A stretch of DNA of 64,000 bases from assembly GCA_963765785.1 (NCBI GenBank), contig CAVXXW010000010.1, forward strand, positions 6,024 through 70,023, read 5' to 3'. Source of the DNA: an uncultured Actinomycetes bacterium. GTDB taxonomy: Bacteria; Actinomycetota; Thermoleophilia; Gaiellales; Gaiellaceae. Under the pieces are notes generated by a model. That model ran no database searches. It worked only from the letters and a program-made list of their open reading frames with translations, and was not told the DNA's origin. The translations under genes and the position numbers were made by a program. Of the stretch, positions 23,860 to 57,885 are shown piece after piece (position 1 is the stretch's first letter; every line of letters begins with the position of its first letter).

Positions 23860-23925
23860 GCGGGCGTCCTTCGACCCGCGCGCGGATCTCCCTCCCGTCC
23901 CGCTCACGGTAATCTGCGGCCCGAC

Positions 23926-24363
23926 GTGGTCGAGGAAGGCAAGCCGGCACCGAACTTCGAGCTCGAGAGCGACAGCGGCGAGACCGTCAAGCTCTCCGAC
24001 CTCCGCGGCAAGCCCGTCGTCCTCTACTTCTACCCCAAGGACGACACACCCGGCTGCACGCGGCAGGCTTGCGGGATCCGCGATACCTGGGGCGAGTTCC
24101 AGCGTGCCGGCGCGGAGGTGTTCGGCATCAGCGCCGACACCGTCGCGTCGCATGAGAAGTTCAAGGAGAAGTACTCGCTCCCGTTCCCGCTTCTCGCCGA
24201 TCCCGAGCACAAGCTCGGCGAGGCGTACGGCGTGGCGCGGGAGGGGAAGAACTCGTACGAGCGCTCGACGTTCGTGATCGACGCCGGCGGCAACGTCGCG
24301 AAGATCATGCGCCGCGTGAACCCCGACCAGCACGCCGACCAGGTGCTCGAGGCGCTCGCATGA
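23926..24363 (+). CDS. bcp: thiol peroxidase / peroxiredoxin Bcp
   Basis: GTG at 23926; GKPVVLYFYPKDDTPGCT active site. Confidence 0.85.
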   Translation: MVEEGKPAPNFELESDSGETVKLSDLRGKPVVLYFYPKDDTPGCTRQACGIRDTWGEFQRAGAEVFGISADTVASHEKFKEKYSLPFPLLADPEHKLGEAYGVAREGKNSYERSTFVIDAGGNVAKIMRRVNPDQHADQVLEALA

Positions 24364-24782
24364 TGTGGTCGCGACGCGATCCGGACCTGGTGCTCGTCGA
24401 GGCCATGCTCGCGCCACCGCCGCTCGACGACGCCCGCCGCTCGCTCGCGTACTGGCAGCAGCGGCGCAGGACGCTGCCGGTCTACCAACGCAGCGCGCGG
24501 CGGGAAGCCCGCGAGATGGAGGCGCGCTGGGAGGGCCGGGTCCGCGAGGCCGAGCTGGTGCGCTTCGAGTCGACCGTTCCCGGGAGGATCCTGAAGGCGG
24601 TCGGGCTCTCGGGCCTCTACGGCAGGATGCTGCCGCTGAACAAGGGGCGGCTCCTGTGGCTCGCCTGGGCGATCGCGCCGCGGCGGCTGAAGCTGGTCGC
24701 GGGCGGCCTGGTCGCGGCCTGGCTGCTCGTCTCGCTCGTCGCCGTGACGGCGCTCGCGGCCGTCGTCTTCCGGCTCGGCTAG
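24360..24782 (+). CDS. hypothetical membrane protein
   Basis: ATGA overlap with the bcp stop; C-terminal TM segment (LVAGGLVAAWLLVSLVAVTALAAVVF). Confidence 0.5.
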   Translation: MMWSRRDPDLVLVEAMLAPPPLDDARRSLAYWQQRRRTLPVYQRSARREAREMEARWEGRVREAELVRFESTVPGRILKAVGLSGLYGRMLPLNKGRLLWLAWAIAPRRLKLVAGGLVAAWLLVSLVAVTALAAVVFRLG

Positions 24783-24791: not shown

Positions 24792-25010
24792 TTAGCTATC
24801 GCCCTGGCGTTCGCCGGAGAACGACTGCTCCCAACCGACGTTCACGAGCATCGCGCCCACCTCGCGGACTGCAAGGGCGATCTCGAGGCCGATCTCTCTG
24901 ATCGCCTCGGTCTCGCGGGCCGTCGACGCACTTGCGCGCAGCTGCTCGAGCAGCCCTTCGAGCCGCTCGATCTCCGCGTAGTTCTTTTGCTCAGGGTTGT
25001 TGACTGCCAT
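24792..25010 (-). CDS. hypothetical small protein (72 aa)
   Basis: ORF with coding-like composition; no recognisable family. Confidence 0.4.
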   Translation of the reverse strand: MAVNNPEQKNYAEIERLEGLLEQLRASASTARETEAIREIGLEIALAVREVGAMLVNVGWEQSFSGERQGDS

Positions 25011-25056: not shown

Positions 25057-25096
25057 TATGCGGATGAGAGGACTTGAACCTCCACGGGGTTCTGAG
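25057..25096 (-). repeat. tRNA 3'-end-like 40-bp sequence (att-like), copy 1
   Basis: The reverse complement reads CTCAGAACCCCGT-GGAGG-TTCAAGT-CCTCT-CATCCGC-A (T arm plus acceptor 3' strand). No 5' half is present. Identical to 31651..31690. Confidence 0.75.
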
Positions 25097-25213
25097 TGTA
25101 ATGGCCTGCCGCGGCGAGTCGTGACAGGAAGCCGGTTTGCGCCGGCCGAGGTGCCTCGGATCTCCCCGGTCCGAGTCGGTGTACGGACTGAGCGCGGACT
25201 AGACTCGGCTCTC

Positions 25214-25309
25214 GTGCAGGCCGAGAACGTCGCGCTGATCCCGAAGTGCGCGGAATGCGAGGGCGCGTACTGCCCGAAGTGCGCGGAGCGGGAGGTCGGC
25301 AACGGCTGA
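25214..25309 (+). CDS. zinc-ribbon mini-ORF, copy 1 (31 aa, internally deleted form)
   Basis: GTG start; VQAENVALIPKCAECEGAYCPKCAEREVGNG keeps both CxxC pairs; paralogous to 32038, 33938, 35725 and 35986. Confidence 0.45.
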   Translation: MQAENVALIPKCAECEGAYCPKCAEREVGNG

Positions 25310-25319
25310 CTCGCCGGAC

Positions 25320-25757
25320 CTGTTTCGGAACATCCTGGTCGGCATCGACGACTCGCCGTCCTCGCGGCGGGCGCTCGAGTATGCGATCGGACTCGCCCGA
25401 GCGGGCAATGCCAAGCTGACGCTGATGACAGTTGCGCCGCCGCCCTCGACTTACGTCACCCTGGGCGGGTTGAGCCCCGAGACGATGGGCGCCCAGTTGG
25501 ACAAGTGGGCGAGGGAGGCGTTGGAGGACGCCGCCCAACTCGTCCCTGACGACGTCATCGCGCACAAAGTGCAGGGCAGCGGCCAGGCAGGCCCCGCGAT
25601 CCTGAAGGAGGTCAAGCGTGGACAGTACGACCTGATCGTGCTCGGCTCCCGCGGGCGGGGGCGCGCACAGGAAGGCCTTCTCGGAAGCGTCAACGGCTAC
25701 CTCCACTTCCGCGCGCAGGTCCCGCTACTCACCGTGCCCGAGGAGAGCAGTACCTAG
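25320..25757 (+). CDS. universal stress protein (UspA family)
   Basis: FRNILVGIDDSPSSRRALEYA ... LIVLGSRGRG ... GSV motifs. The family-typical N-terminus has only CTG (25320) as a start; the first ATG is at 25425. Confidence 0.75.
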   Translation: MFRNILVGIDDSPSSRRALEYAIGLARAGNAKLTLMTVAPPPSTYVTLGGLSPETMGAQLDKWAREALEDAAQLVPDDVIAHKVQGSGQAGPAILKEVKRGQYDLIVLGSRGRGRAQEGLLGSVNGYLHFRAQVPLLTVPEESST

Positions 25758-25947
25758 CGTCCGGCTACGCCCCGTTCCCGTCGCCGCCTAGTCGCTCTTT
25801 CGGACATGGCGCGCAGCGTCTGTACCGCCTCCCAGTGCCAGCGCAGCGCCTCGGCGCTGGCCGCCTGGTGAACCCAAAACGGAGAGCGGCCCGATGGACG
25901 GGCCGCTCGACCGAGCACGCGACGGAGGTGTCGTGTGCGCTGTGCGA

Positions 25948-26310
25948 TTACTTGATCGTCAGCTTCAGGTGGTTGTCGTCGGGTGCCTGCTTGACCATCG
26001 TGATCTTGTAGACCCCCGTCGCCTTGAGCGTCAACGACGCCCCGACCTTCGCGTGCTTCGTGCCACCCGGGCCCTTGATAATCAGGGCGGCCTCGTCGAG
26101 GTTGACGAGCTTGACCGGGCCGCTGCGCGTGACCGTCTTGGCGTATTTGCGGTGATTCGGGCCTCCTGCGACGTAGAACCAGTGGCAGCCGGGGTCGTGC
26201 ATCGCGACGATGAGCTTGGTCGGCGTCACTGCGGCATGGTTCACCTGCGCGGCCGCAACCGGCACCGCCAGCATCAGGCCGGCGATCACCGTAAGAGTGA
26301 GTTTGCGCAT
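25948..26310 (-). CDS. small secreted protein, function unknown
   Basis: ATG at 26310 after GGAGG; signal peptide MRKLTLTVIAGLMLAVPVAAA. Confidence 0.65.
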   Translation of the reverse strand: MRKLTLTVIAGLMLAVPVAAAQVNHAAVTPTKLIVAMHDPGCHWFYVAGGPNHRKYAKTVTRSGPVKLVNLDEAALIIKGPGGTKHAKVGASLTLKATGVYKITMVKQAPDDNHLKLTIK

Positions 26311-26466
26311 AACTGCTACCTCCATCGCGTGTCGTTTCGCGAATCAGACACGCCAAGGGGCCACGCTTCGTCCGCGAAGACGCCGATCTAGCCCCGGGAG
26401 AACTAGGGATTCGGGCGGGAGGTGCTCCTCGGTTGTGGAGCGCGCCGCAGCTTCCGCGGGGGTCGG

Positions 26467-26584
26467 CTAGGGCCTAGCCGAGCTGATGCTTGTAGACGAT
26501 CGCCTGAGCCTGCGCCTGCCGCAGCGAAGCGCGCCCACGGGTAGATCGGGCAGCGGCGAGCCCTGAAGCCCGCCGCTGTTCGAC
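26467..26584 (-). pseudogene. remnant of the C-terminus of an HNH-like protein (paralog of 35245..35703)
   Basis: ...GIES... then LRQAQAQAIVYKHQLG*, compared with NGIEASLHRKLCNGTLTLRQARAQEIAYKHRFG* in the intact copy; frames are mixed. Confidence 0.4.
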
Positions 26585-27668
26585 TCAATGCCTAATGCAC
26601 GAGCGGATGCGTGCCCCAGTCGGGCGAACCCGTCTGGCGACCGCGTCGGTTCGTTGCAACCCAGGGCGTTGGGATCGGCGTTCGCGCCCCCGCAGGCCGA
26701 TGTCGGCTGGACGTTGATCTCATGCAGGCCGGTGCCGTCGGTATGCACGACCCAGATCGAGCTGTGCACGTCCGGCGTCACGTGTTGCGAGAAGACCGAT
26801 CTCGTTTCCCTGCGGCGACCAGCTGCCGAAGGAACTGAAATCGAGACCTGCAGGCGTGATCTGCTTGAGCCCGGTTCCGTTGATGTTGACGACGAACAAG
26901 GCGTCGACCGTCGTCCGCAGGAAGACGATCCGCTTCCCGTTCGGCGACCAGTCCCCGGGGATTGTCGTCGCCGCCGGGACTCGAGGTGATCTGCGTGAGG
27001 CCACCGCCATCGGAGGTTCGGATCGTGTGGATGCCGTTCTGACTGCCGTCATCGCTGAACGTCTCGCAGAGGAACAGCCTTCCGTCAGGCGACGGGCTGC
27101 CGCATGGATTGAAGAGCCCCGGGTACCCCGCGTCGACGATGCGGAACGTTCCGTCGTCGGGGTTGATGATCGTTGCGCCGCCGCCGAGCGACGACCCGCA
27201 GGTCGCAATATGGGCGCCTCCGAGAACCACATCGGGCACTCGCCGGTTTCCGTCGGTGCCTGGATGAGCCGCTGGCCCGTGCCGTCCGGGTTGACCAGGT
27301 AGACCTGCGTATCGCCGAGGTCCGGGTTGAACCGGGCGAACGTGAAGCCTTCGGCCGGGCGATAGACCTCGGCCGGAGTCCCGCTCACCGGATCAACATC
27401 GGCCGGGTGACGTTTCTCGAAGTTCGGCCCTGCAAGCCCCACGGGTCGGGTCGACGCCCGCGAGCCAGACGAGACCCTCTTCGACTCCGATTGTGGCCAC
27501 GGCGTAGAGCGTGTACATCGCTGAACGGCGACGTGCCTCCTCATCAGCCCACGCGATGACCGCATGCACGTCCTCTGCCTCGAGAACGCAGTGCTCGGCC
27601 GCCGCCCACATGACCTGCTCCTGCCCTCCTGCAGGAAGGTCCGACTCCGGGAGACGAGGCTGCCGCAA
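26585..27668 (-). pseudogene. TolB/PD40-like beta-propeller protein, fragmented by at least four frameshifts
   Basis: Motifs spread over three frames: FNPDLGDTQVYLVNPDGTGQRLI / SPSPDGRLFLCETF..IHTIRTSDGGGLTQIT / GDWSPNGKRIVFLR..LFVVNINGTGLKQIT / WSPQGNEI / IWVVHTDGTGLHEI. Confidence 0.6.
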
Positions 27669-27861
27669 AAGACCACGTAGAAGTCATGGATCGGCCGCAA
27701 CCAGAAACCCGCATGGGCCCGGCGCGACTCAATCCTCGCCGTCGCATCGTCTGCCGAGCCTAGCTGGGCTCCGGCTCGGAAAAGCGTTAGGGTGCCGCGC
27801 TGGGCAGGGCGTCCGGTCTACGCGCGGGCGATCAAGAACCCAGACATGAGGAGGGAGTCCT

Positions 27862-29445
27862 ATGAGAGTTCGTCAGCGACGATTGCTGATGACGTTGGTC
27901 CTCGCCGGGACGGTGGGAGTCTCGGCAATAGCAGCGCCGAGCGCCTCGGCAACCCTTAAGAGCTTGCCGAACGGCCAGATTGTGTCCTATCTCCCGCTGC
28001 GCTCGGCTCCATCCGGGCCGACCCCGTTCGACCTCGCGTTCAACAACATGGACTACAACGGCGGTCCGGTGATGCCGTCGAATACCGACTACATGCTGAT
28101 GTGGAGCCCGCAGGGCCTAGGGGCCTATCCGGACGGGTTCGTGTCCGGCATTGCCCGCTACTTCAATGACCTCGCCCACGACAACGGAGGCAACCAGAAC
28201 GTCGACTCGGTCGGGCCGCAGTACAACGACCTGACCGGCGCGGTCGCGAACTACGACGTGAGGTTCGGCGGCGTGCTGGTCGACACGGACCCGTACCCAG
28301 CGAGCCAGTGTCCGGTGAATGCCCCGGTGATTAACTGCCTGACCGACGCTCAGATTCAGCAGGAGATCGAGAGCTTCGTCACCGCTCGCCACCTGCCGAC
28401 GGATTTGAGCCAGGAGTACTTCCTGCTGACGCCTCCGCACGTCGAGAGCTGCTTCACCAACGACCCGACCCAGAACTTCGGAGGGTGTTCGGCCGGCATC
28501 GTCCCGGTAAGCCAGTTTGGTGCGTACTGCGCGTATCACCAGAACACGGCCACGCCGACGATGATCTTCTACGCGAACATGCCGTTCGACGCCACGAGCC
28601 CCTTTTGCCAGGACGGCAACTATCCGAACGGGCTGATCTCGGACGGCGAGATCAACGGCGGCCTCAGCCACGAGCACATGGAGTCGGTTACCGACCCGAT
28701 TCCGAACGACGCGTGGACCATCGGCGCCGGGCCGTTTCATGGGTTCGAGGTCGGCGACGTGTGCGTCGCCGACGTGGGCACGCCGCTCGGCACCGCGCCG
28801 AACGGCTCACCGTTCAACCAGGTGATCAACGGGCACCCTTACTGGTACCAGACGGAGTGGAGCAACTTCACCCACAGCTGCGTGCAGCGTGTGACGCTCC
28901 CCAAGCAACTGCCGAAAGCGAAGGAGACGGTCACCGCGGGCAACGGGACCGACATCACGTTCGACTCCACCAAATCGACGGCGCCAGGCGGCGTGGCCCA
29001 GTTCAGCTGGCAGTTCAATGCCGTTCTCGATGCCGAGACCGTCGAGCAGACGACGCCAACGACCACGTACACGTTCCCGGCGCCCGGCGCGTACTCCACC
29101 GGCGTGGCCGTGTTCAACGGCGACGGGCTATCGGCCGGAACCGGTGGGATCGTGGTCACGGGCAAGAACGGGTTCCAGCCGGCGTTCACGGTCTCGCAGG
29201 GTGCAGGCACCACGGTGAACTTCAGCGCGATCACGACCGTGAGTGGCAAGCCCGTTATCAACTACCTCTGGGAGTTCGGGGACGGCACAAGCGGGTCGGG
29301 GCCGACCCCGACGCACACCTATCAGCGACCAGGCTCCTACACGGTGACCGCAGTGCTGTTCAGCGGCGTCGGATCCGCCTTCCCAGGAGACGGCGCTGGA
29401 CCGATCTACCAGCAGAAGATCGCGGTCGGTGCGGGTCCCCACTAA
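27862..29445 (+). CDS. secreted protein: Cys-rich N-terminal domain of unknown function plus two PKD-like domains
   Basis: Signal peptide MRVRQRRLLMTLVLAGTVGVSAIAAPSASA; YNGGPVM and SHEHMESVTDP motifs; C-terminal repeats ending FGDGTSGSGPTPTHTYQRPGSYTVT. Confidence 0.8.
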   Translation: MRVRQRRLLMTLVLAGTVGVSAIAAPSASATLKSLPNGQIVSYLPLRSAPSGPTPFDLAFNNMDYNGGPVMPSNTDYMLMWSPQGLGAYPDGFVSGIARYFNDLAHDNGGNQNVDSVGPQYNDLTGAVANYDVRFGGVLVDTDPYPASQCPVNAPVINCLTDAQIQQEIESFVTARHLPTDLSQEYFLLTPPHVESCFTNDPTQNFGGCSAGIVPVSQFGAYCAYHQNTATPTMIFYANMPFDATSPFCQDGNYPNGLISDGEINGGLSHEHMESVTDPIPNDAWTIGAGPFHGFEVGDVCVADVGTPLGTAPNGSPFNQVINGHPYWYQTEWSNFTHSCVQRVTLPKQLPKAKETVTAGNGTDITFDSTKSTAPGGVAQFSWQFNAVLDAETVEQTTPTTTYTFPAPGAYSTGVAVFNGDGLSAGTGGIVVTGKNGFQPAFTVSQGAGTTVNFSAITTVSGKPVINYLWEFGDGTSGSGPTPTHTYQRPGSYTVTAVLFSGVGSAFPGDGAGPIYQQKIAVGAGPH

Positions 29446-29671
29446 CTAGAGATAACTGACAACCGATGGCCGACACTCGGACTTTGGTGATTGAGGGGCA
29501 GGTACGCATCCTCACCGCCAAAGTCCGGTGCCAGCTTAAGGTGTAACTCTGTAACTGCTGAGTTGCGTCAAAGCCTGACTGCGCTCTGACGACGGTACGC
29601 TCGGCCAGGCGACGTTGCTCTGCTGCGGCTCGTCTCTCGCGTCCGAGGAGGACGACTTCCACGCGCTTTTC

Positions 29672-30202
29672 TTAGGCGCTCCTCTGCGGCGGGGGCCAGG
29701 CGGAAGCGCTGACGACGCCCGGTAGAGCCTTCTCGAAGAGTGCGGCGAGGCGGACGAGCTCGTGCTTGGTGAGTCGGCCGGTGTAGAGCTCGCGCACCGT
29801 AGCGTGGTGGACGACTTGCGCGAGCCGTAGCGCCTCGAGCCCGGACTGGGTCAACGCAGCGAAGGCGGCGCGTCCGTCCGCCGGGTCGGGTTCCCGGCTA
29901 ACGAGACCCTGTTCCTCGAGGCGGAGGACCACTCGGGTGATTCCGCTCGGCGTGAGCATCCGCTGCGCGCCGAGGTCGCTCATGCGCAATCTCAGTCCGG
30001 GGGCGGTGACAAGCGTGATCAGGACGCCGTAGTCGGCGAGCGAGATCAGACCGTCGTGACGGAGGCGGCGGTCGATCTCGCGCATCACGGTTTCTCGGAG
30101 ACGGATCAGCCCTCGCCACGCGTCGAACTCCCCCGGACTGAGGGCCTCCGGCTCCGGCAACTCCTCGAGCCAGTGCTCGGGTTCGGATCGATTACTTGAC
30201 AT
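29672..30202 (-). CDS. MarR-family transcriptional regulator
   Basis: Winged HTH (LRMSDLGAQRMLTPSGITRVVLRLEEQGLVSREPDPADGRA). Confidence 0.85.
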   Translation of the reverse strand: MSSNRSEPEHWLEELPEPEALSPGEFDAWRGLIRLRETVMREIDRRLRHDGLISLADYGVLITLVTAPGLRLRMSDLGAQRMLTPSGITRVVLRLEEQGLVSREPDPADGRAAFAALTQSGLEALRLAQVVHHATVRELYTGRLTKHELVRLAALFEKALPGVVSASAWPPPQRSA

Positions 30203-30215
30203 GTTGAAATAACAT
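30196..30215. promoter_or_regulatory. AT-rich divergent MarR/cupin control region with TTGACA and a short palindrome
   Basis: TTGACA at 30196, followed by ATGTT-GAAAT-AACAT (30201-30215); I could not place a -10 element. Confidence 0.3.
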
Positions 30216-30287
30216 TTGCGAGCATCTACTTGCGTGTGTGAAGTATATCGACCGGCCCGGCCGGTCCTCCAGAAAAAGGGGATAGAA

Positions 30288-30758
30288 ATGACATCTCTTC
30301 AGACCAAGGTTCTCGCCCCAGGCGAAGGACTGCGACTCCAGTCCGGTCCAGGACGCGACCTCGTCTTCAAGGTCACCGGCGAGGACACCGACGGAGCGTT
30401 CGACTACTTCACCGTCGAAGTCGCTCCAAAGGGCGGGCCGCCGCTCCACGTCCACCACCATCAAGAGGAGACGATTCACGTTCTGAAGGGCCAGTACAAG
30501 ATCCAGATCGGTGACGAGACGTTCCACTGCACGGAAGGCGGCTTCGCCTACATGCCGTCGGGCGTCCCCCACGCGTTCCTCAACCTGACGGACGACCCGG
30601 GCGAGATCGTCGTGGTCTACACCCCGGGTGGCGGCCACAAGTTCTACGAAGAGCTAGGCCCGCTGACGCGAAATGGGACGCCCGACCGTGCAGCCGTCGC
30701 CGCCGTCTTCGAGAAGTACGACATGACACTACTGGGGCCGCCGCTGACCGATGACTGA
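30288..30758 (+). CDS. cupin-domain protein
   Basis: ATG at 30288 after AAAAAGGGGA; GPPLHVHHHQEE ... VPHAF cupin motifs. Confidence 0.8.
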   Translation: MTSLQTKVLAPGEGLRLQSGPGRDLVFKVTGEDTDGAFDYFTVEVAPKGGPPLHVHHHQEETIHVLKGQYKIQIGDETFHCTEGGFAYMPSGVPHAFLNLTDDPGEIVVVYTPGGGHKFYEELGPLTRNGTPDRAAVAAVFEKYDMTLLGPPLTDD

Positions 30759-30794
30759 ACCTGAACACCTCTGAGGCGCAAATGCACTGCCGGC

Positions 30795-31448
30795 TCATGT
30801 GACATTCGCGGACGCTGGCGCAGTGGGCGTTCTTGTAACCCGGCAGTAGGTTGGGTCACCGTGGCAGCGGGTTCGGGCCGGTCGCGTCACGAGGCGCTGC
30901 GGGACCCAGTCGTCGACGTGGACGAAGCCATCGAACGTCGCGCCCCCAAGGACGCAGGAGTCGTAGAGCGAACGGCGGTAGAACTTCACGTGGGTGAAGT
31001 CCTCGAAGAGCACGTAGTACGGCTCGGTGTCGGCGTTCTGGAACTGTTGCCCGGTCAGGACCGCTCGATGCTTGCGGGAGAAGGCGTCGACGTCCTCACC
31101 GACGACGACGCCGAGGTGCTCGAGGCCCATCCGGTAGACGCGTTGGTGAACGGGCGGGATGAGCTCGATGAGCGAAACCGGAGTCCCGTCGAGGACATCG
31201 AGCGGCTCGGCGAGGACGATCTTGAAGATCGGCCGGCCGTTCCAGACGCTCTCGAAATTGGCGGTCGCGTGGCGTTCCAGCAGGGTCCGCTGATGGACGT
31301 ACAGGTCCCAGTCGGGCACGCGCACTGCGAGATGGCTGAGGGCGTACGGCGCGATGTCGATGCCCCGCGCGATGAGCCGGTCGCGCTGCGTCACCGCGAA
31401 GGCTCGATAGTCCCCGATGATCTCGGCGATCGGATCAGACGTCACCAC
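30795..31448 (-). CDS. VOC/YecM-like metal-binding protein
   Basis: ORF 217 aa; LSHLAVRV...W and LEHLGVVV motifs reminiscent of the YecM/VOC fold; weak call. Confidence 0.55.
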   Translation of the reverse strand: MVTSDPIAEIIGDYRAFAVTQRDRLIARGIDIAPYALSHLAVRVPDWDLYVHQRTLLERHATANFESVWNGRPIFKIVLAEPLDVLDGTPVSLIELIPPVHQRVYRMGLEHLGVVVGEDVDAFSRKHRAVLTGQQFQNADTEPYYVLFEDFTHVKFYRRSLYDSCVLGGATFDGFVHVDDWVPQRLVTRPARTRCHGDPTYCRVTRTPTAPASANVT

Positions 31449-31650
31449 GTGACATCCTCCTCCGCGATAGTACGAGATGCACGGCCGAACACACGGTCCC
31501 GGGTCGGTCTCACGTAGGTAGTCAGTTCCCCGGGCGCGACGCTCTCAGGAGGCACTCGACCTACCCTGCCATCTGCTGGCTCCCCCACGTTTACGGACTG
31601 AGCGCGGACGGACGGGCGGCTAACCGCACGGAACCCCTGCACGTCTCACG

Positions 31651-31690
31651 TATGCGGATGAGAGGACTTGAACCTCCACGGGGTTCTGAG
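31651..31690 (-). repeat. tRNA 3'-end-like 40-bp sequence (att-like), copy 2
   Basis: 40/40 identical to 25057..25096; no 5' tRNA half is adjacent. Confidence 0.75.
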
Positions 31691-32037
31691 GGCTGTGGCG
31701 GTATCTGGCGAACCGTGGCGGGAAGCGGGTTCGCGGCTCATCTCGCTGACGGCCTAGGCGCTGTTTCGGGCCGGGTTTGTGGACTGAGCGTGGACTAATT
31801 CGGCGGCATCCAGCACCGGCGGTGTACGGCCGCGTCCGTGAGGAACCGCGGACTGGCCAGTCAGCGGCACCTCGAACGCCAAGACGGGCGCGGCCTCCTA
31901 AGTCGACGCGCTCGCCGTCTGCTTCTTGCGCACTGGTGGGTCTGCTCGCCGTCGGGGCGGCCCCCCAGCCGCCACACGCTTCCGGCGCCCGTCCGGTGCC
32001 TAGTCCCGACCGGCGGGTTGCGTCGTACACTCGGCCG

Positions 32038-32227
32038 ATGCCTCTCGAGAACGTCGCGCTGGTCCCGCAGTGCACGGAGTGCAAGGCCGCATGGTTGCCG
32101 GCTGACGAAGAGCGCTGGGAAGCGCACCTCGGCGTGCGACGAGAATCTCGACGAGCCGGCCGAGGTCGTCTTCTACTGTCCGGAGTGCGCTGCGCGGGAG
32201 TTCGGGGGAGTAAAGAGTGGGGCCTAG
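32038..32227 (+). pseudogene. zinc-ribbon mini-ORF, copy 2, split by one extra nucleotide (about 32134)
   Basis: MPLENVALVPQCTECKAAWLPADEERWEAHLG in one frame and CDENLDEPAEVVFYCPECAAREFGGVKSGA* in the +1 frame; length 190 nt (3n+1). Confidence 0.55.
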
Positions 32228-32779
32228 CGCCGAGACCACAGTTGGCCAGAACTGAGGACCTATTGGCGCTCGACCCTAAGCGCGCCGCATCGGCCCCACT
32301 CGTCAAGATTCCCAGACTCGGCGGTCTCCTGTCCATGGGCCGTCTGACCCATCTTCCTACCCGTGGAGGCCTAGGAGCGCTCCGCTCCGCGCGCGAGACG
32401 AGACCCGCCGCCCTAGCCGCCAGCGCCCCTCTGCCTAGCTAAGAGACCAAGGCATCGGGGGCGAGTGCTGGCCCACCCGTCCCCGATGGCCGTGACACTA
32501 CGGCGCCGCGAACGCGCTTCCCTTTGGCCCGTTTGCGCTCACCTCGCTTGCCCAAGCCCGGACTGCGCGGCCTGCGATTTCGGCGGCGGCTGACCGCGTC
32601 AATGCCCGCTCGGCGTTTGCCGGCGGACTGGTCCGAAAAGGAAAGGGCGGCCCGTCGGCCGCCCCGTACTTTGCGCGTCCGTCCGTCTCTGCGGCCAAGG
32701 CGGCCGGTCTGCGCTGACCCATGGTGTGACGGCCCGGCGGCCCGTGCCTCCCCATGAAGGGGGATATCTCCAGGCAACG

Positions 32780-32810
32780 CGAAACGGGGCCGCCGCCTGG
32801 CCCCGTTTCG
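32780..32810. other. perfect 12-bp stem / 7-nt loop hairpin in an ORF-poor stretch
   Basis: CGAAACGGGGCC-gccgcct-GGCCCCGTTTCG. Confidence 0.5.
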
Positions 32811-33336
32811 AGTCTCCCGTGAGAGAGAGCCGCAGGTAAGTCGTCAGGCCCCGCCGCATTGAGGCCCTTCGTGTCTTCCGAGGTCGCCCCCGCCGCATCG
32901 GGGCGCGTCTCGGTTGCACGAGCAGTATCGGGTCGGGGGTGGCTGGTTGATCCATCACCCTTCTACGGTTGACTGCCTCACTTGACACGGAAGACCAGCG
33001 ATGGGACTCGTGGCGGTCGAAGATGAGCCACACGGCCGATGGTGCTCCGAATCGTTGCTCGTCATGCTCGTGCCGTGAGGTTCTGCGGCCGAAACTCCTC
33101 GCCAGCGTCTGCCTCGTCATCGCCGCGGCGGCGGCCGTGCTCGCGTTGAGGGCGGCACAGGCGACGGCGCAGGGCGTGAGGAAGCGCCCTGCACGTGGGG
33201 GGCGTCATCGGTCAGCGCCGAGGAAGTGGACGGGAAGGACGTCGTCTCGCCAGCAGCGACCTCCGGCTGCATTCCTAAGTAACGATCTGCGCCTGCAGAG
33301 CGCTCGACCTTCGACGGTCGCGGCCGGTTCCGTGAG

Positions 33337-33361
33337 GGGCCGGGCGGCGAGCCGAACGCCC
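33337..33361. repeat. 25-nt repeat GGGCCGGGCGGCGAGCCGAACGCCC, copy 1
   Basis: Identical to 39288..39312; contains the small hairpin CGGGCG-N10-CGCCC(G). Confidence 0.7.
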
Positions 33362-33722
33362 TCGCGCGTGTAGGTGCTTCCCCCGATGCGCATCACCGCA
33401 GCCCGGCGACATAGTCGGAGCGTGAGCCGGGGCCGCCAGAGGCCGCCGCGCACTTCCCCGTGGCCTGCCGAAGGGGTGGTCACCCGGGGGGCTGACGGAA
33501 GCCTCAGGCCCCGGGGCCGCCCTATCCCCCACCCCCGTGGTGAGGCCCGCCGAACTCTCCCGCGATCTCAGCAGAGAGGTCACCGGGCGTCCTGACGGTC
33601 AGCCTCTACCCCGGCTCGCGCTCTCCGGAACCTTGAAGGGCCCGCCTGAAGATCGCCCGCGGATGGCCCTGTGGATACGACGAGACAGGCTCGGCGATGA
33701 GCGAGGGGTGGATGCAGCTGGA

Positions 33723-33881
33723 CTAGCGGCCAAGCCTCGTTCTGCGGCGGATGCCGAGACGCCCCTGCATAGCCTTGTCTTCGGCTCCGTCTTTCCGGGC
33801 CGCCCAGACGAACACGGCTCCAATGATCGCCAGCGGCACGAGGACCGCGACGAGCGCGATGATTCCGGCAGCGCTGGTCAT
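33723..33881 (-). CDS. possible 52-aa single-TM peptide
   Basis: MTSAAGIIALVAVLVPLAIIGAVFVWAARKDG...; no clear RBS. Confidence 0.3.
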   Translation of the reverse strand: MTSAAGIIALVAVLVPLAIIGAVFVWAARKDGAEDKAMQGRLGIRRRTRLGR

Positions 33882-33937
33882 CCGCGAAAGTGTCGCACGG
33901 ATCTTCAAGCCGGCAGGGCCGGGCGCTTGCTGAAACA

Positions 33938-34063
33938 CGTTGCGGTGGCTCACGTGCCGGTATTCGCCCCCCGATCGCGGCGATGGCGCTCGCGGCGCGC
34001 GTGATGCTGCTGCCGCAGCCGCTCTGCCCGGACTGCGCTGCGCGCGAGTTTGGGCACTCATGA
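33938..34063 (+). pseudogene. zinc-ribbon mini-ORF, copy 3 (degenerate)
   Basis: Only the C-terminal ...LLPQPLCPDCAAREFGHS* is retained. The upstream VAVAHVP...RRW lies in another frame and the first CxxC is lost. Confidence 0.35.
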
Positions 34064-34258
34064 GAACGAGGAGGAGCGAGCGGCCAAGCGCAAGAAAGCG
34101 CGCGACTGCGGCGTCTGTTTAGACAAGCCGGGCGGCCGGCCATCCACCGGGGTTTTGGCGGCATTTCCCCGTTAGGGGGAGAACGGTCGCCCGGTTATTA
34201 CAGGGTCGCACTGTCCGAGGCCGCCCGGTAGCTGGCCGTCGGGGGAGTTCGCAGCTTC

Positions 34259-34498
34259 CTAGAACGACCCGACGAGCGCCCGCAGAACACGCACGGCCTC
34301 CCGTCGCGGCTCGTGCGGTAAAGCCGAGAGAGCCGACACCGCGAGCGCGACGTCGCTCAGCGTCGGCTCGCACTCCTGCAGGTAGCGCTCGAGCCAGCGG
34401 ACCGCGACCCTCGGTAGGCGCTTGGGCTCCTTCGCCGCGATCAGGATCGTCAGCTCGAGCGCTTCGACGAGGCTGATCCGGCCGAGCTCCCGCGCCAA
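34259..34498 (-). CDS. hypothetical helical protein (79 aa)
   Basis: TTG start. A coding-like frame continues upstream without a start codon. A diverged partial paralog lies at 39745-39900. Confidence 0.5.
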   Translation of the reverse strand: MARELGRISLVEALELTILIAAKEPKRLPRVAVRWLERYLQECEPTLSDVALAVSALSALPHEPRREAVRVLRALVGSF

Positions 34499-34714
34499 GC
34501 CTTCGGCGACGACAATGCCGTGCTGGAGTGCTCGAGCAAGACGGTCGTGGACGGCCCTGCGAGGTCGACGTGCTCCTCCCCGGGGCCGGACGGCGTGAGG
34601 AGCCTAAGAGCACTCTGTCGGTTGGCGAGATACTGCGCGGTAGAAACGGCGCTGGCATGAATCGGATCTGACTGGGCGCAGCGCGGAAGATCCAACGCGG
34701 GAGGAGTAAGACAC

Positions 34715-34906
34715 GTGGCTGAGCGCAGGTACGGCGGGATAACCCTTGGCGGGATCATCGTCATTCTCGGGATCATCCTGATCATTGTCTGGAGCTTCTG
34801 GATCGGGCTCATCGTCACGCTCATCGGGCTCATCGCCTTTGCGGGTTCGCGCGGGGCAAGTGGTACTGAGCCGGCTTTCGCAGGTTCGACTAGTACTCGG
34901 GCTTAG
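34715..34906 (+). CDS. small two-TM membrane protein (63 aa)
   Basis: GTG after GGGAGGAG; GGIIVILGIILIIVWSFWIGLIVTLIGLIAFAG. Confidence 0.55.
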   Translation: MAERRYGGITLGGIIVILGIILIIVWSFWIGLIVTLIGLIAFAGSRGASGTEPAFAGSTSTRA

Positions 34907-35174
34907 GTGAGATCGGCACGCGGGCAGCCTGGCGGAGGCTTCGCAGTCCTTCCGCCAGTTGGAGCTCGGTGTCGGCCACATCGAGGCAAAGCAGCAGCTC
35001 CTGCCGCATCTCCTCATCCGCGAGGACATCCGGCTGCCCCGAATCGGCCTGCAGCACTCGCGCTAGCTCAGACTGGAGTGCCAGCAGAGCCAGATTGCGT
35101 TCGATGAGCAGGTCGTGCAGCTCGTTTGCCTCAGCCCGCGTCAGCGGCAACTTTCGCGCGCCGAGAATCATCAC
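34890..35174 (-). CDS. hypothetical protein (94 aa)
   Basis: ORF only; helical, Leu/Glu-rich; no RBS seen. Confidence 0.35.
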   Translation of the reverse strand: MMILGARKLPLTRAEANELHDLLIERNLALLALQSELARVLQADSGQPDVLADEEMRQELLLCLDVADTELQLAEGLRSLRQAARVPISPKPEY

Positions 35175-35244
35175 TACGGACGGCCCTATGAGGTCGACGG
35201 TTCCCTCCTTCTTGGGGGCGAGACGGCGCGAGTGAGTCTACGGA

Positions 35245-35703
35245 CTAGCCGAAGCGATGCTTGTAGGCGATCTCCTGCGCCCGCGCCTGCCGCAGCGTCA
35301 GCGTTCCGTTGCAGAGCTTCCGGTGAAGGCTTGCCTCGATGCCGTTGTCATCGCGCCGAGCCTGCGTCCACGGCTGCGGCCAGAGGTTCCGCGTCGCGCG
35401 GGGAGCGCCGCCGAGCTCGAGGCTAACGAGGTGGTCCTCCTCGAAGTGGCTCGGGTTCAGGTCGGCGTACTGAAATAGAACGAGCTGCTTCTTCTTCAAC
35501 GCGTTCGTGTAGCTCGCCGGCGGTCGTATCGTCTTCGTCCAGCCGACGCGACAGACGGTCTTGAAGAGCGTCTTCTGCGTCACGGCCGAGTAGCGGACCC
35601 CCGGCGTGTGCGTCGGCAGGATCAGCGCAGCACTCGACGCGAGCGCGCCAGCCGCGACGACCGCCGCGGCGACGAGAGCGAGAAGTACGACGCGCCCACG
35701 CAT
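35245..35703 (-). CDS. secreted/anchored HNH-like nuclease-fold protein
   Basis: N-terminal hydrophobic segment; EEDHLVSLELGG ... NLWPQP motif, as in small actinobacterial HNH-like proteins. Confidence 0.65.
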   Translation of the reverse strand: MRGRVVLLALVAAAVVAAGALASSAALILPTHTPGVRYSAVTQKTLFKTVCRVGWTKTIRPPASYTNALKKKQLVLFQYADLNPSHFEEDHLVSLELGGAPRATRNLWPQPWTQARRDDNGIEASLHRKLCNGTLTLRQARAQEIAYKHRFG

Positions 35704-35724
35704 GTCGGGAACGGACGATAGCCC

Positions 35725-35922
35725 CTGTCGCCCGCTCTAGAGTCGCGTCATGGAGTCGTCGCGCTCGTCCCGAAGTGCGTGGAGTGCAAAGCCGTCTGGC
35801 TCCCTGCCGACTCAGAGCGTTGGCGCGCATACCTCGGCTGCAGCGAGGATCTCGATGGGCCGGCGGAGGTCTTCTTCTACTGCCCTGAGTGCGCGGAGCA
35901 CGCGTTCGGCAGCGACTCCTAG
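35725..35922 (+). CDS. zinc-ribbon mini-ORF, copy 4 (only apparently intact full-length copy)
   Basis: ...VALVPKCVECKAVWLPADSERWRAYLGCSEDLDGPAEVFFYCPECAEHAFGSDS*. The only in-frame start is CTG at 35725; the ATG at 35750 is out of frame. Confidence 0.5.
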   Translation: MSPALESRHGVVALVPKCVECKAVWLPADSERWRAYLGCSEDLDGPAEVFFYCPECAEHAFGSDS

Positions 35923-35985
35923 AAGGTCTTACACCCCTCACCTGGCCCAGATGGACGCTTACATGCGCCTGTCTGCCTTCGTAAA

Positions 35986-36166
35986 GTGGGCCAATGGTCT
36001 GCGCGGGTCGTTGCCTTCATCCCTAACTGCGTCGAGTGCGGCGAAAGCTGGTTGCCCGCGGAACACCGACCGGTGGCAGGCGTACTGGGTCGACGACGGG
36101 CCGGTGGACGTGTTGCTCTTCTACTGCGCGGCGTGCGCGAAGCGCGAGTTCGGCGAGAAGTCGTAG
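35986..36166 (+). pseudogene. zinc-ribbon mini-ORF, copy 5, split by one extra nucleotide (about 36067)
   Basis: VGQWSARVVAFIPNCVECGESWLPAEH in one frame and DRWQAYWVDDGPVDVLLFYCAACAKREFGEKS* in the +1 frame; length 181 nt (3n+1). Confidence 0.5.
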
Positions 36167-36237
36167 ACGCCGGTCCCCGGCGCGCTCTCGGCGAGCCGAG
36201 GACATGAGCAGCAGCTGAGCGCCTAAGACGACCCGGT

Positions 36238-36267
36238 GGAACTTGTGTGTGCCCCGCGGCCAAGGAC
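36238..36267 (+). promoter_or_regulatory. ECF-type promoter candidate, GGAACTT-N13-GGCCAAGGAC, copy 1
   Basis: Same bipartite motif and spacing as at 36643 and 37038; upstream of the small secreted ORF. Confidence 0.55.
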
Positions 36268-36313
36268 TTAGCGAGATCGCATGAAGCGATCGCGAGCCGC
36301 GAGAGGAGGCGAC

Positions 36314-36572
36314 ATGTACAAGCTCGCAATCATCGGAGCCCTGCGTTGCAGCGCTAGCAATTCCGGCCAGCGCTGCCGCTAAGGGGATTCGTCCGCCACG
36401 AATGCACGCGCAGGCTGCCTGCGCGCAGAGTGCGGTCATCCTGCCCGGACGGGACTACGGCACCTGCGGCGGTCAGCTGTGGTTTCGCTATGGCCAGAGT
36501 GGCGGGTTGGTGACGACAGGGCCGGCGTTCTGGAGACACGAGCGCATGGATCGGCCTGACGACCACCCGTGA
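36314..36572 (+). pseudogene. small secreted protein with its signal peptide split by one extra nucleotide (about 36344)
   Basis: GAGAGGAGG-N4-ATG gives MYKLAIIGAL, then the +1 frame gives VAALAIPASAAAKGIRPP...GQLWFRYGQSGG...*. The unshifted frame stops after 22 codons. Confidence 0.45.
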
Positions 36573-36642
36573 GGAGTTAGGCCGGGGAGGAGAGAGGCCG
36601 CGCGGCGGTTGATGCCTGGATCAGCCGCCCGCGCCACTCGAT

Positions 36643-36672
36643 GGAACTTCTCGACCTCTACTGGCCAAGGAC
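36643..36672 (+). promoter_or_regulatory. ECF-type promoter candidate, GGAACTT-N13-GGCCAAGGAC, copy 2
   Basis: See 36238; followed by AAGAGGAGG and the ATG at 36722. Confidence 0.55.
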
Positions 36673-36721
36673 TCGGTAAGCGAACGCGCAGAAGCTCGAA
36701 CGCAAGAGGAGGTGAGGTGCA

Positions 36722-37000
36722 ATGTTCATCTACGACACGAAGGCGCAGCGTCTGATGGTTCAAGAACACGTGGATCAGCTCGCGCAGGATCTGCGGCGTG
36801 TATCGGACCAACCGCGTCGGACGTCGAAGGGAGTCGACGGGCTCAGCGGATCACTCGGGTCGCGGATCTGCTCCAGCTGCGGACGCGGCGCTTGCATCGG
36901 GCGCGACTCCGTGCCCGTGCGTTCGACCTCTAGTCGAGCGGCCGTCCTCAGTACAGGGCGATCCGGCTCGAGGCACTCAGGGCAACGGCGCTTCGGTTGA
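36722..37000 (+). CDS. hypothetical protein (92 aa)
   Basis: Good RBS and a plausible N-terminus (MFIYDTKAQRLMVQEHVDQLAQDLRR), but the Ser/Arg-rich rest suggests a possible frame problem. Confidence 0.3.
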   Translation: MFIYDTKAQRLMVQEHVDQLAQDLRRVSDQPRRTSKGVDGLSGSLGSRICSSCGRGACIGRDSVPVRSTSSRAAVLSTGRSGSRHSGQRRFG

Positions 37001-37037
37001 CACCCCTCGGGCGCAGCGAGAGCATCGAAATGCCGAA

Positions 37038-37067
37038 GGAACTTTTTGGTTGCCATCGGCCAAGCAG
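37038..37067 (+). promoter_or_regulatory. ECF-type promoter candidate, GGAACTT-N13-GGCCAAGCAG, copy 3
   Basis: Ends 7 nt before the GTG of the ECF sigma gene, implying a leaderless or very short leader transcript. Confidence 0.55.
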
Positions 37068-37073
37068 GGAGTA

Positions 37074-37655
37074 GTGGATACGCAAGCACCTGCTGCTAGG
37101 CAAGACCCAAGCGACGCGAAAGCGATCGAGCAGTCGCTAGACGAGCCGTCGGCGTTCGCGACCGTCTTTGAGCGCCACTTCTCGCTAATCCATCGGTTCC
37201 TCTGCTTCCGTGCGGGAGTTCAGCCGGCAGGGGACTTGGCGTCCGAGACATTCGCGATCGCCTTCCGTCGCCGCGCCGACTACGACCTTCGACGTCCTGA
37301 CGCTCGGCCGTGGTTGATCGGTATCGCCGCCAACCTGGTTCGCGAGACCCGACGCAGCGAGCGCAGGTTGAATCGTGCTTTAGCCAAGCTCGCCGGCGAG
37401 CGCACGATCGATACCGAGGGGCCCGAGGCAGCCATCGGGCGCGATCCGCGAGTCGCGATGCTGAATGAGGTACTCGCAGGGCTCTCGCCGGATGATCGCG
37501 ACCTGCTCCTGCTGTTCGCCTGCATGGAATTCAGTTACGAGCAGATCGCGGAGACGATGTCGTTGCCGATCGGCACCGTCCGTTCCCGTGTCCACCGCCT
37601 GCGCGACAAGCTCCGCGGGCGTCTTTCCGAGGCCGCCAAGGGGGTTCAGGTCTGA
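37074..37655 (+). CDS. ECF sigma factor
   Basis: GTG at 37074; region 2 (FATVFERHFSLIHRFL...PWLIGIAANL) and region 4 (LLLLFACMEFSYEQIAETMSLPIGTVRSRVHRLRDKL). Confidence 0.8.
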   Translation: MDTQAPAARQDPSDAKAIEQSLDEPSAFATVFERHFSLIHRFLCFRAGVQPAGDLASETFAIAFRRRADYDLRRPDARPWLIGIAANLVRETRRSERRLNRALAKLAGERTIDTEGPEAAIGRDPRVAMLNEVLAGLSPDDRDLLLLFACMEFSYEQIAETMSLPIGTVRSRVHRLRDKLRGRLSEAAKGVQV

Positions 37656-38455
37656 TGCCGACCGAGTTCTACGAGCTGCGCGAGGCCTGGTTGGCGGTTC
37701 CGGCGCCGAGCGAGGAGGTGCGCGAAGACGCACGAGCTCGACTGTTTGAGGAGATCGCGCTCGAGCAGTCCGCGCAGCTTGGTCAGGCGAGCGAGCCGGA
37801 GCGTCGACACAGCGGGCTGAGGCCTCGCTCCCGGTTCGCGCTCGTTCTTGTGCTCGTGTTGTTGCTCCTGTTGACGTGGGCAACGCTGACGCTCGCCTTC
37901 GGCTGGCACGTCCCATTCGCCAGCGCGCCAAGGGCGCCGCACAGCTCGGAAGCGTTCAAGGAGTTCGACACCCTCGACCAGGGCGCCCCTCAGGGGATGG
38001 CAAGCGGCGTGATTCCTAACGAGACGCGGCTGGTTGCGACCTACGACGGCATTCCGCTTTGGGTGGCTCCGACGACAACAGGTGGCTATTGCTTCATGTT
38101 CGCCGGGTCCGGTGGCTGCGATCGAGACGGGACGGTTCCGCTCAACGTCGTTTACAAGACCTCCGGAGGGCCGGCCGCCGACAGCTCGCCGCAGACGGCC
38201 CTCGCTTACCTGCGCGAGTTACACGGCGCCGTGAACGCGCGCTGGTCCGACAGCGTCGAGGTCCGCTTCGAAGATGGGGCAGTCGTCCGCCCCGAGATCG
38301 TGTGGATCTCAGAACCGATCTCAGAAGGCTTCTTCTACGTCCCGATCGGAGACGACCATCGCCGTCCTGGCCATCAGCTACGGGAGGTCGTTGCGCTTGA
38401 TGCTGATGGACGCGTCGTCGCTACCGACGACTCCATGTCGCCAAGAAGCCCATAA
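37655..38455 (+). CDS. single-pass membrane protein, putative cognate anti-sigma factor
   Basis: TGATG overlap with the sigma stop; short cytoplasmic N-terminus, TM segment (FALVLVLVLLLLLTWATLTLAF), extracytoplasmic domain. Confidence 0.6.
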   Translation: MPTEFYELREAWLAVPAPSEEVREDARARLFEEIALEQSAQLGQASEPERRHSGLRPRSRFALVLVLVLLLLLTWATLTLAFGWHVPFASAPRAPHSSEAFKEFDTLDQGAPQGMASGVIPNETRLVATYDGIPLWVAPTTTGGYCFMFAGSGGCDRDGTVPLNVVYKTSGGPAADSSPQTALAYLRELHGAVNARWSDSVEVRFEDGAVVRPEIVWISEPISEGFFYVPIGDDHRRPGHQLREVVALDADGRVVATDDSMSPRSP

Positions 38456-38474
38456 CTGCAGTGGAGGTGGTCCG

Positions 38475-39053
38475 ATGAAACGAACGCTCCTTTTGGCTCT
38501 CGTGATCGCAGCAAATGCAGGAACGACAAGAGTTGCGGAGCCCGCGCAAGCGCGACAACTCCACCAATGTCCGCGGACATACCTTCACGACATCTATGGC
38601 GGGCGAGATCAGTGCCTCTCGGTTGCCAGGCGGAAGCACCTCTATTACGTGCTCGTCGGGTTAATGAACCGCGGTAACGAGCAGGCGTACTCCATCGTCT
38701 CGCGGCGCTTCCGCGTGTCGATACGGGCGCTGCGACGGATCAGGACCGAAGGAGAGCGGAAGCACTGGCCAATCCCGCCTCTCCCCGGCTTGGAGACGGT
38801 CTCACACGCAAACGCACGATCGACCGCATGCTTCCGCGCGCATGGCGCAAGGGTCGTCAAGGTCAAGAGCGACCCCTCGCTCTTGAAGAACAGTTGGCTC
38901 GCATGGTGGGGAGATTCCTGGCAGGAGGGCCAATACGTCAACTGGCGCTATGTCGCTACGGCCCAACGGCCGCCACGCACAAATAGCTTCCTGGCCATAA
39001 GGGGGCCGAACCTCACCAAAGACGAGACCCGGTATTTCTATCTATGCCTCTAG
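38475..39053 (+). CDS. secreted hypothetical protein with visibly lower GC codon usage
   Basis: GGAGGTGG-N5-ATG at 38475; signal-like MKRTLLLALVIAANAG. Confidence 0.6.
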   Translation: MKRTLLLALVIAANAGTTRVAEPAQARQLHQCPRTYLHDIYGGRDQCLSVARRKHLYYVLVGLMNRGNEQAYSIVSRRFRVSIRALRRIRTEGERKHWPIPPLPGLETVSHANARSTACFRAHGARVVKVKSDPSLLKNSWLAWWGDSWQEGQYVNWRYVATAQRPPRTNSFLAIRGPNLTKDETRYFYLCL

Positions 39054-45216: not shown

Positions 45217-45236
45217 GCCAATTAGGAGGCTCGCCG

Positions 45237-55892: not shown

Positions 55893-57885
<1,993 letters not shown>

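Follow-up and report, generated by a model that had tools for sequence, protein, structure and literature searches.

Two repeats derived from a tRNA gene

We have analysed a 64-kb stretch of DNA (the window, to which all coordinates refer) from an uncultured soil actinobacterium of the Gaiellales, and in particular a pair of repeats within it that are probably the remains of a tandem array of islands integrated at the 3′ end of a tRNA gene. The 40-mer TATGCGGATGAGAGGACTTGAACCTCCACGGGGTTCTGAG occurs in two exact copies on the + strand, at 25057-25096 (copy 1) and 31651-31690 (copy 2), with no mismatches between them. They bracket 6.55 kb of DNA (25097-31650) that we call element A, and the DNA to the right of copy 2 begins element B. 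No third copy with three or fewer mismatches is present in the 64 kb, and none of 100 shuffles matched.

Read on the minus strand, 33 nt of each copy (25059-25091 and 31653-31685) are 100% identical to positions 52-84 of the Gaiellales tRNA-Leu(CAG). The shared block spans the 3′ strand of the variable arm, the T arm, the acceptor 3′ strand and the discriminator A, and beyond it the 40-mer has 2 nt downstream and, towards the element, 5 nt (CTGAG). A search of the window with the full tRNA (blastn-short) found no 5′ half, and only positions 52-84 are present at either copy. The acceptor 5′ strand, D arm and anticodon arm of a complete cloverleaf are absent from both, so that neither has the form of a functional tRNA. 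Apparent 5′ halves at 25.82 and 32.73 kb in a tblastx comparison were found to be spurious high-GC matches on direct comparison. Judged by sequence, the 40-mers are 3′-end fragments of tRNA-Leu(CAG). That both copies are fragments of the 3′ end of a tRNA had been proposed in an earlier reading of this DNA made from its letters alone (the sequence-only reading).

The central 31-mer of the repeat is found in at least 120 loci in a scan of one genome per species (comparison loci L001-L120), mostly in Gaiellales or 'uncultured Actinomycetes' soil metagenome-assembled genomes (MAGs). Among the matches listed it also occurs in Bryobacteraceae, Neobacillus and Planctomycetota, and in nearly all the loci checked it forms the 3′ terminus of an intact tRNA-Leu, whose anticodon is usually CAG.

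The similarity of the two copies is uneven. They match at 40/40 positions in the core, at ~60% over ~110 nt of their right flanks, and at a random level (17/60) in their left flanks. This pattern fits a core that has been re-templated by the tRNA at each integration, and not a plain duplication. The right flanks had already been described as diverged but alignable, and they contain the motif GGACTGAGCGCGGAC, i.e. two CGGACT hexamers 11 nt apart (CGGACT-N5-CGGACT). The sequence TACGGACTGAGCGCGGAC is found exactly at 25182-25199 and 31592-31609, and with three mismatches at 31778-31795, giving three matches in the window where 0.27 would be expected. The second of these had been noticed earlier as a partial motif near 31595. 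A further box, GGAAGCSGGTTYGCG, lies at 25127 and 31721; by itself this short box does not reach significance. Judging by where they lie, how they are spaced and how they are conserved, the paired CGGACT repeats are candidate arm-binding sites for the integrase or the excisionase (Xis).

Measured from the core, the offset of the motif is +96 at copy 1, where the DNA to the left is chromosomal and that to the right is an element arm. Copy 2 is flanked by the motif on both sides, at −61 and +98, and is therefore read as a hybrid junction of two stacked elements. The right-end arm of element A is 80-85% identical to the sequence downstream of intact tRNAs in four relatives (L002, L056, L078 and L085), and had no match in metagenome contigs. 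The left-end arm of element B is ~60% identical to that of element A.

The tRNA-Leu(CAG) site in related genomes and soil metagenomes

The genes to the left of copy 1 (uvrC, a hemQ-like gene, a membrane protein gene, bcp and an open reading frame (ORF) of 140 codons) align with the flank of tRNA-Leu(CAG) in many Gaiellales loci, with 70-87% nucleotide identity. Among the matches listed, most related genomes have an intact tRNA at exactly this position, between bcp plus the 140-aa ORF and a gene for a subtilisin-like S8 protease, and of the 67 loci with an S8 gene, 65 have it immediately beyond the intact tRNA. The layout in the relatives is thus the left flank, an optional fragment with an island and an integrase gene (int), tRNA-Leu(CAG) on what would be the minus strand in the orientation of the window, and the S8 gene. 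Since the intact tRNA occupies the same syntenic position in most related genomes, we take copy 1 to be the displaced original end of the tRNA gene. In L085 the tRNA starts ~60 nt past the homologue of the 140-aa ORF (L085 1927-2769 and window 23925-24760 are 80.5% identical). There the conserved left flank leads straight into the tRNA, and the region 25.1-31.7 kb is missing, an absence that the sequence-only reading had suggested looking for in relatives. The stretch 24792-25010, between the conserved flank and copy 1, gave no BLAST match among the related loci compared.

Several relatives retain both a fragment and an intact tRNA. Among the matches listed there are seven loci in which these lie 1.1-5.3 kb apart as perfect direct repeats of 32-36 nt, and the cassettes between them can be as short as 1.1 kb (L056 and L078). 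A unit of 6.2 kb spanning L020 and L079 contains a gene for an HNH nuclease and no integrase. Loci L108 and L004 are on the same contig, where bcp and a fragment (L108) are followed by an island of ~11.6 kb, an integrase remnant, the intact tRNA and the S8 gene (L004). The sequence-only reading had placed an intact tRNA to the right of the repeats on the minus strand. This geometry is what the L108/L004 contig has, but in the window itself no such tRNA is found within 32 kb to the right of copy 2.

The arm motif is positioned similarly in these genomes. Among the matches listed it lies between −52 and −65 from the core, on the downstream side of the tRNA, in 16 of 73 intact tRNA loci (at −62 or −63 in 14 of the 16), and at +97 to +99, on the element side, at five fragments (L002, L006, L041, L056 and L108). 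Two-armed junctions like that at copy 2 occur in L006 and in the metagenome contig L202, a short tandem junction that was the one match of a gapped search of metagenome contigs for motif plus core. L020 and L022 are partial cases, with a left-arm motif beside an element-type right flank. L023 has a tandem att (attachment) junction at 2520-2700 in which both arms are kept and the tRNA-derived core of ~28 nt, between ...GGTGC and GTTCTGAGG..., is precisely gone. Cores can therefore be deleted from such junctions.

In the relatives the tRNA-side arm is directly preceded by a tyrosine recombinase gene, whose end lies 100-600 nt short of the tRNA. Integrase homologues are found just upstream of the tRNA in L038, L005, L027, L004, L011, L002 and L201; that of L038 is full length, and those of L002, L004 and L011 are remnants. 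Among the matches listed, L038 has the only full-length integrase at the 16 tRNA loci with the arm motif, and none was found beside the rest other than these three remnants. L201 is a viral contig from IMG/VR, and was the sole match among viral contigs. It has genes for a portal protein, TerL, a DUF3631 protein, an HTH_17 excisionase-like protein and a 368-aa integrase of the Phage_integrase family, 91% identical to the full-length homologue of L038, followed by the arm motif and an intact tRNA. L038 and L201 have the same att core, with the motif at −62/−63 from it and directly downstream of the integrase gene. The presence of the arm and core beside these integrases, together with the excisionase and packaging genes of L201, indicates that the att architecture belongs to a prophage-type int-xis module. 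No free attP form was found in the viral contigs, which gave only the integrated prophage end L201. Conjugation genes were seen neither in the window nor in the relatives inspected, and the only autonomous relative found is prophage-like. The earlier proposal that related elements had integrated serially agrees well with these results: the att arms are homologous and diverged, the same layout is found with an intact tRNA in relatives, and the tyrosine integrase is full length in two of them.

The window was also compared with public metagenome runs. The organism is present in these at a depth of 2-14x, and the data are short-read contigs that end at the repeat and so prove presence, not absence. 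Four soil runs from one study contain 24.6-31.68 kb (the left flank, copy 1, element A and its right arm) at 99-100% identity, and three of them (X1-X3) follow the window up to 31680 at 100%. Element A is found almost letter for letter in runs X1-X4 and X21. The short-read contigs of the same five runs have nothing for 31696-31985 or 35.9-39.0 kb, the four runs of the one study have little of 32-40 kb, and the region 31.9-40 kb reaches at most 10% of sampled words in any indexed run. Parts of 33.4-35.1 kb are nevertheless present in soil runs at 98-99% identity. Some contigs of the same soil runs extend from the core into the 5′ half of an intact tRNA, and any Gaiellales organism could be their source. 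The accessory region is highly strain-specific. For the join at copy 2 there are two readings: it varies between strains, as an att junction would, or the contig of the window is chimeric there.

Element A and the remainder of the window

The features of the region are collected in Table 1. Element A has a GC fraction of 0.653, compared with 0.711 in the left flank. Pfam was applied to 36 ORFs of the window and PHROGs to the small ORFs tested. The genes between the repeats had been described earlier as cargo, and Pfam bears this out for the universal stress protein, the MarR and cupin proteins and the YecM-family protein, which we take to be a member of the VOC superfamily. The 125-aa protein is probably secreted, judging by its N-terminus. 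A decayed beta-propeller had also been suggested at 26467-27700; this was not upheld, with a PD40 repeat at E = 0.22 as the only match.

Table 1. Features of the repeat region and its flanks, in window coordinates
Feature	Position	Strand	Evidence and remarks
bcp-type peroxiredoxin	23923..24363	+	chromosomal left flank; 70-87% nucleotide identity to the gene beside tRNA-Leu(CAG) in dozens of Gaiellales loci
Conserved 140-aa ORF	24360..24782	+	last syntenic chromosomal gene before the tRNA site; no Pfam family
72-aa ORF between conserved flank and copy 1	24792..25010	-	good coding score; no Pfam/PHROGs match
Repeat copy 1	25057..25096 (tRNA part 25059-25091)	-	read as displaced original tRNA-Leu(CAG) 3′ end, attR-type boundary; arm motif on right side only
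Element A left-end arm	25097..25213	+	TTCTGAG, GGAAGCCGGTTTGCG box 25127-25141, CGGACT-N5-CGGACT 25182-25199; fragment-side profile 25058-25215, E=2.6e-31
Zinc-ribbon mini-ORF, internally deleted	25214..25309	+	translation ENVALIPKCAECEGAYCPKCAEREVGNG*; paralogous to 32046-32090
Universal stress protein	25314..25757	+	Pfam Usp, E=2e-27
125-aa protein with hydrophobic N-terminal stretch	25948..26325	-	high coding score; signal-peptide-like N-terminus by eye; no Pfam/PHROGs match
Broken reading frames, possible decayed gene	26467..27700	-	overlapping low-scoring ORFs only
527-aa protein, hydrophobic N-terminus, two PKD domains	27862..29445	+	Pfam PKD_4, E=2.2e-20; PKD, E=3.7e-18
MarR-family regulator	29672..30202	-	Pfam MarR_2, E=3.6e-11
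Cupin-domain protein, divergent from MarR gene	30216..30758	+	Pfam Cupin_2, E=6.3e-17
YecM-family protein	30795..31448	-	Pfam YecM, E=2.5e-14
Element A right-end arm	31565..31650	+	motif 31592-31609, CCCTGCACGTCTCA adjoining core; tRNA-side profile 31565-31683, E=4.3e-27
Repeat copy 2	31651..31690 (tRNA part 31653-31685)	-	tRNA-Leu(CAG) 3′ fragment, read as attP-like hybrid junction of elements A and B; motifs at −61 and +98
Element B left-end arm	31691..31814	+	GGAAGCGGGTTCGCG box 31721-31735, motif 31778-31795; profile 31652-31801, E=9.5e-34
Remaining accessory region	31815..40046		weakly coding small ORFs mostly, zinc-ribbon copies, ECF sigma factor 36798-37655, segments paralogous to element A
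Zinc-ribbon mini-ORF, frameshifted	32038..32227	+	N- and C-terminal halves in different frames; 78% nucleotide identity to intact copy 35757-35909

The Pfam search gave no recombinase, conjugation or phage structural gene among the 36 ORFs, and no family of structural, packaging or lysis genes was found by Pfam or PHROGs among the ORFs tested between 25 and 39.7 kb, so that this region does not have the make-up of a prophage. By its annotated gene content, element A holds only cargo, and is without integration or packaging genes of its own.

A zinc-ribbon mini-ORF (CxxC...CxxC) had been noticed after each copy of the repeat, and is found there internally deleted at 25214-25309 and frameshifted at 32038-32227. 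The family has further members at 32556-32583, 34024-34054, 35749-35922 and 36001-36166. That at 35749-35922 (57 aa) is the only intact one; the rest have internal deletions or frameshifts, or are C-terminal stubs. In L002 and L012, too, the tRNA fragment is followed by a homologue. Neither the zinc-ribbon ORF nor the small ORFs belong to any Pfam or PHROGs family.

To the right of the arm of element B, the region 31815-40046 has low coding scores, and Sigma70_r2/r4 are the only Pfam matches. Its GC fraction is 0.66 compared with 0.71 in the left flank, and over the window as a whole the values are 0.63-0.69 from 25 kb to the end and 0.70-0.74 in most of the first 22 kb. Profile and fuzzy searches found no right-hand att site in this region. 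The sequence GGGCCGGGCGGCGAGCCGAACGCCC... and a following stretch of ~80 nt recur here and elsewhere, at 33330-33367/39282-39337, 25764-25845/39345-39427, L023 2710-2808 and (reversed) L002 ~2891-2996. In L023 the segment lies directly after the distal att arm. Such segments may be the left ends of further elements whose att sites have been lost.

The DNA beyond 40 kb is also patchy. A gene for glutaminyl-tRNA synthetase (GlnRS) at 40047-41743 is interrupted by single-base insertions at two places, near 40939 and near 41379, compared with an intact 562-aa orthologue in L121 (91% nucleotide identity). The gene alone is shared with L121 and L122, and not its flanks; the next-best homologues are in Chloroflexia, Acidobacteriota and Alphaproteobacteria. 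The gene has the look of a pseudogene acquired by horizontal transfer, or else carries assembly errors. A block with genes for a zinc alcohol dehydrogenase (ADH) and a GH15 glucoamylase (44161-47102) is 80-90% identical in nucleotide sequence to the Gaiellales MAG contig L203, in which it is followed by a homologue of window 63239-63994 in inverted orientation. The GH15 protein is 84% identical to proteins of Kitasatospora and Streptomyces, and only ~70% to most of those from Gaiellaceae, which suggests gene transfer and local rearrangement. An ORF of 240 aa at 55128-55850 (minus strand) is similar to SufB/SufD over the C-terminal core only (profile positions 87-232), and may be a fragment of a gene. 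It lies immediately upstream of groES-groEL (55889-57885), which is an unusual setting.

For the GlnRS gene, and likewise for the ADH-GH15 block, the best matches are in single Gaiellales MAGs, and those that follow come from distant phyla. Because these matches come without shared surroundings, the right half of the window appears to be a mosaic of accessory DNA. GlnRS and GH15 are patchily distributed, the nearest relatives sharing one gene or a two-gene block and not the neighbourhood, and neither provides an anchor for a right chromosomal flank.

Origin of the repeats and comparison with known systems

We consider that the region is a decayed tandem island array, whose att cores were left by related tyrosine-integrase elements with a phage-type int-xis module in the 3′ end of tRNA-Leu(CAG). 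We place the probability of this at about 0.84. Integration would begin with recombination between the tRNA gene and an attP site that has its own copy of the final 33 nt of the tRNA. The copy brought by the element would complete the tRNA, and the original 3′ end would be displaced to lie beside its old downstream flank, as copy 1. A second, diverged element integrating at the same site would then generate copy 2, placing it between the tRNA-side arm of element A to the left and the distal arm of element B to the right. Later deletions would have removed int, xis and any structural genes. What is left of element A would be an island between att sites that is no longer autonomous and can be compared with a cis-mobilizable element (CIME). 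The order of these events is inferred.

A number of results weigh against this interpretation. ARAGORN found no intact tRNA across the 64 kb, and Rfam gave no match in the window at gathering thresholds, nor at E ≤ 5 between 24 and 44 kb. The S8 protease gene is absent from the window. The sequence-only reading had remarked that no recombinase remains, and both Pfam and tblastn are in agreement with that; with nine integrase homologues from relatives as queries, tblastn gave no integrase remnant in the window at E < 0.1. Neither the arm profiles (nhmmer) nor a fuzzy search that allowed up to 8 errors in the 33-mer gave a third att site or a further arm up to 64 kb, and the right end of element B is consequently undefined. 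In runs X1-X4 and X21, whose short-read contigs end at the repeat, no excision joint skipping 25097-31690 was seen, and the public runs provide no support for the join between copy 2 and element B. With an integrase, an intact tRNA, the S8 gene and a third att site all absent over the 64 kb, the array would have a far end that is more than 32 kb away, lost or rearranged. We infer that this end, with the regenerated tRNA, lies beyond the window or is gone.

The same elements could be seen differently, with tRNA-Leu(CAG) acting across the Gaiellales as a landing platform for cassettes of 1-7 kb that lack an integrase and are moved in trans by a phage-type enzyme, the tRNA having been lost or relocated in this organism. 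Movement in and out by an integrase supplied in trans would then be the reason why the cassettes retain both arms (the CGGACT pairs at about +97 and −62). There are some hints of this. The contents of the cassettes differ completely between genomes while their arms can be aligned, full-length integrase is rare at the arm-bearing loci, and the join at copy 2 differs between the strains of the soil runs. Such units would somewhat resemble integron cassettes or CIMEs. We regard this as an unlikely account of the window. The contig might also be an assembly chimera, in which two loci or strains have been joined inside the repeat of 34-40 nt at copy 2; the real element A would then be followed by an intact tRNA and S8, and the DNA from 31.69 kb onwards would belong behind another fragment. 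That X1-X3 match at 100% to 31680 and have nothing for 31696-31985, that so few of the sampled words of 31.9-40 kb are found in any run, that the tRNA and S8 gene expected after the array are missing, and that soil contigs run from the core into an intact tRNA 5′ half (from whichever Gaiellales organism) all accord with a chimera. Yet two-armed junctions occur in the independent assemblies L006 and L202, and in part in L020 and L022, so the two-armed structure is biologically normal. Moreover the depth in the runs is low and their contigs can show only presence, parts of 33.4-35.1 kb are found in soil at near identity, and the sample from which the window came is apparently outside the indexed runs. 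A chimeric join is quite improbable in our estimation.

A further explanation dispenses with site-specific recombination altogether. A segmental duplication or gene conversion of ~150 bp including a dead tRNA end would give two direct copies with alignable right flanks, and would accord with the lack of a recombinase in the window. However, a duplication should decay evenly, whereas here identity is 100% exactly over the tRNA-derived core, ~60% to the right and random to the left. The same arrangement of core plus arm is found at the same offsets beside an integrase in many genomes, and copy 1 is at the native position of the tRNA; duplication is accordingly a very poor candidate. It is scarcely credible that the 40-mer is a selected functional RNA, tRNA-like or regulatory, and not an island boundary. 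Its 40 nt are perfectly conserved amid diverged flanks, and the minus strand could form a T stem-loop. But the acceptor 5′ strand and other parts of a tRNA are absent nearby, no Rfam family was matched even at the relaxed threshold, and the conserved part is the very block identical to the tRNA, which an att core has to preserve if the tRNA is to be regenerated.

Tandem integration at the 3′ ends of tRNA genes is an ordinary and well-known route by which islands are gained. As the mechanism itself is textbook, the value of the locus is mainly for annotation and comparison. The sole unusual features are the missing tRNA and S8 gene; a recombinase gene is also not nearby. On the interpretation as a decayed array, at least 15 kb beside bcp is explained as strain-specific accessory DNA, and tRNA-Leu(CAG) is a recurrent integration hot spot in the Gaiellales, an abundant uncultured order of soil actinobacteria. 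An att core of 33 nt and a conserved arm motif are defined for one integrase family, and the site is linked to a prophage-type int-xis module, which provides a concrete pair of site and integrase for recombination testing. In the literature we found no description of the Gaiellales tRNA-Leu(CAG) as a target or of the CGGACT arm motif.

The array can be compared with the islands catalogued by Islander (PMC4383910), in which a tyrosine-integrase element splits a tRNA gene (tDNA) and restores it with its own copy, and the displaced 3′ fragment in direct orientation marks the end of the island. Fragments of the 3′ end account for 3760 of 3919 cases there, and tandem arrays at a single tDNA are reported, with two or more islands in 125 cases (PMC4383910). 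The window has displaced tRNA fragments in direct orientation, with copy 1 abutting the conserved downstream flank of the tRNA site, and integrase-bearing elements of related genomes use the same site. For each island Islander demands both an intact tDNA and an integrase gene (PMC4383910). Neither a regenerated tRNA nor an integrase gene inside an island is found within the 64 kb, so the array would not pass those formal filters.

Element A resembles the CIMEs related to ICESt1 and ICESt3 of Streptococcus thermophilus, which, as outlined in PMC5704250 (citing Pavlovic 2004 and Bellanger 2011), have lost their integration genes and kept their att sites, and lie in tandem with another element integrated at the same site. 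Element A likewise has both att sites, with a core plus distal arm on the left and a tRNA-side arm plus core on the right, contains only cargo, and is in tandem with a second element. In that outline, however, CIMEs are defined for decayed conjugative or mobilizable elements, whereas the only autonomous relative of element A that we have seen is prophage-like, with portal, TerL, xis and int genes. The prophage-type module of L201 and L038 keeps its integrase (and in L201 also the HTH_17 excisionase and packaging genes), whereas the window keeps the arms only. A further parallel is provided by Dehalococcoides, where, from the account in PMC3146451, acquired cargo islands are inserted site-specifically at the tmRNA gene ssrA by a common mechanism of mobilisation. 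On that account the ssrA islands and the window are alike in having cargo islands at the gene of a small RNA, and differ in target gene, phylum and cargo.

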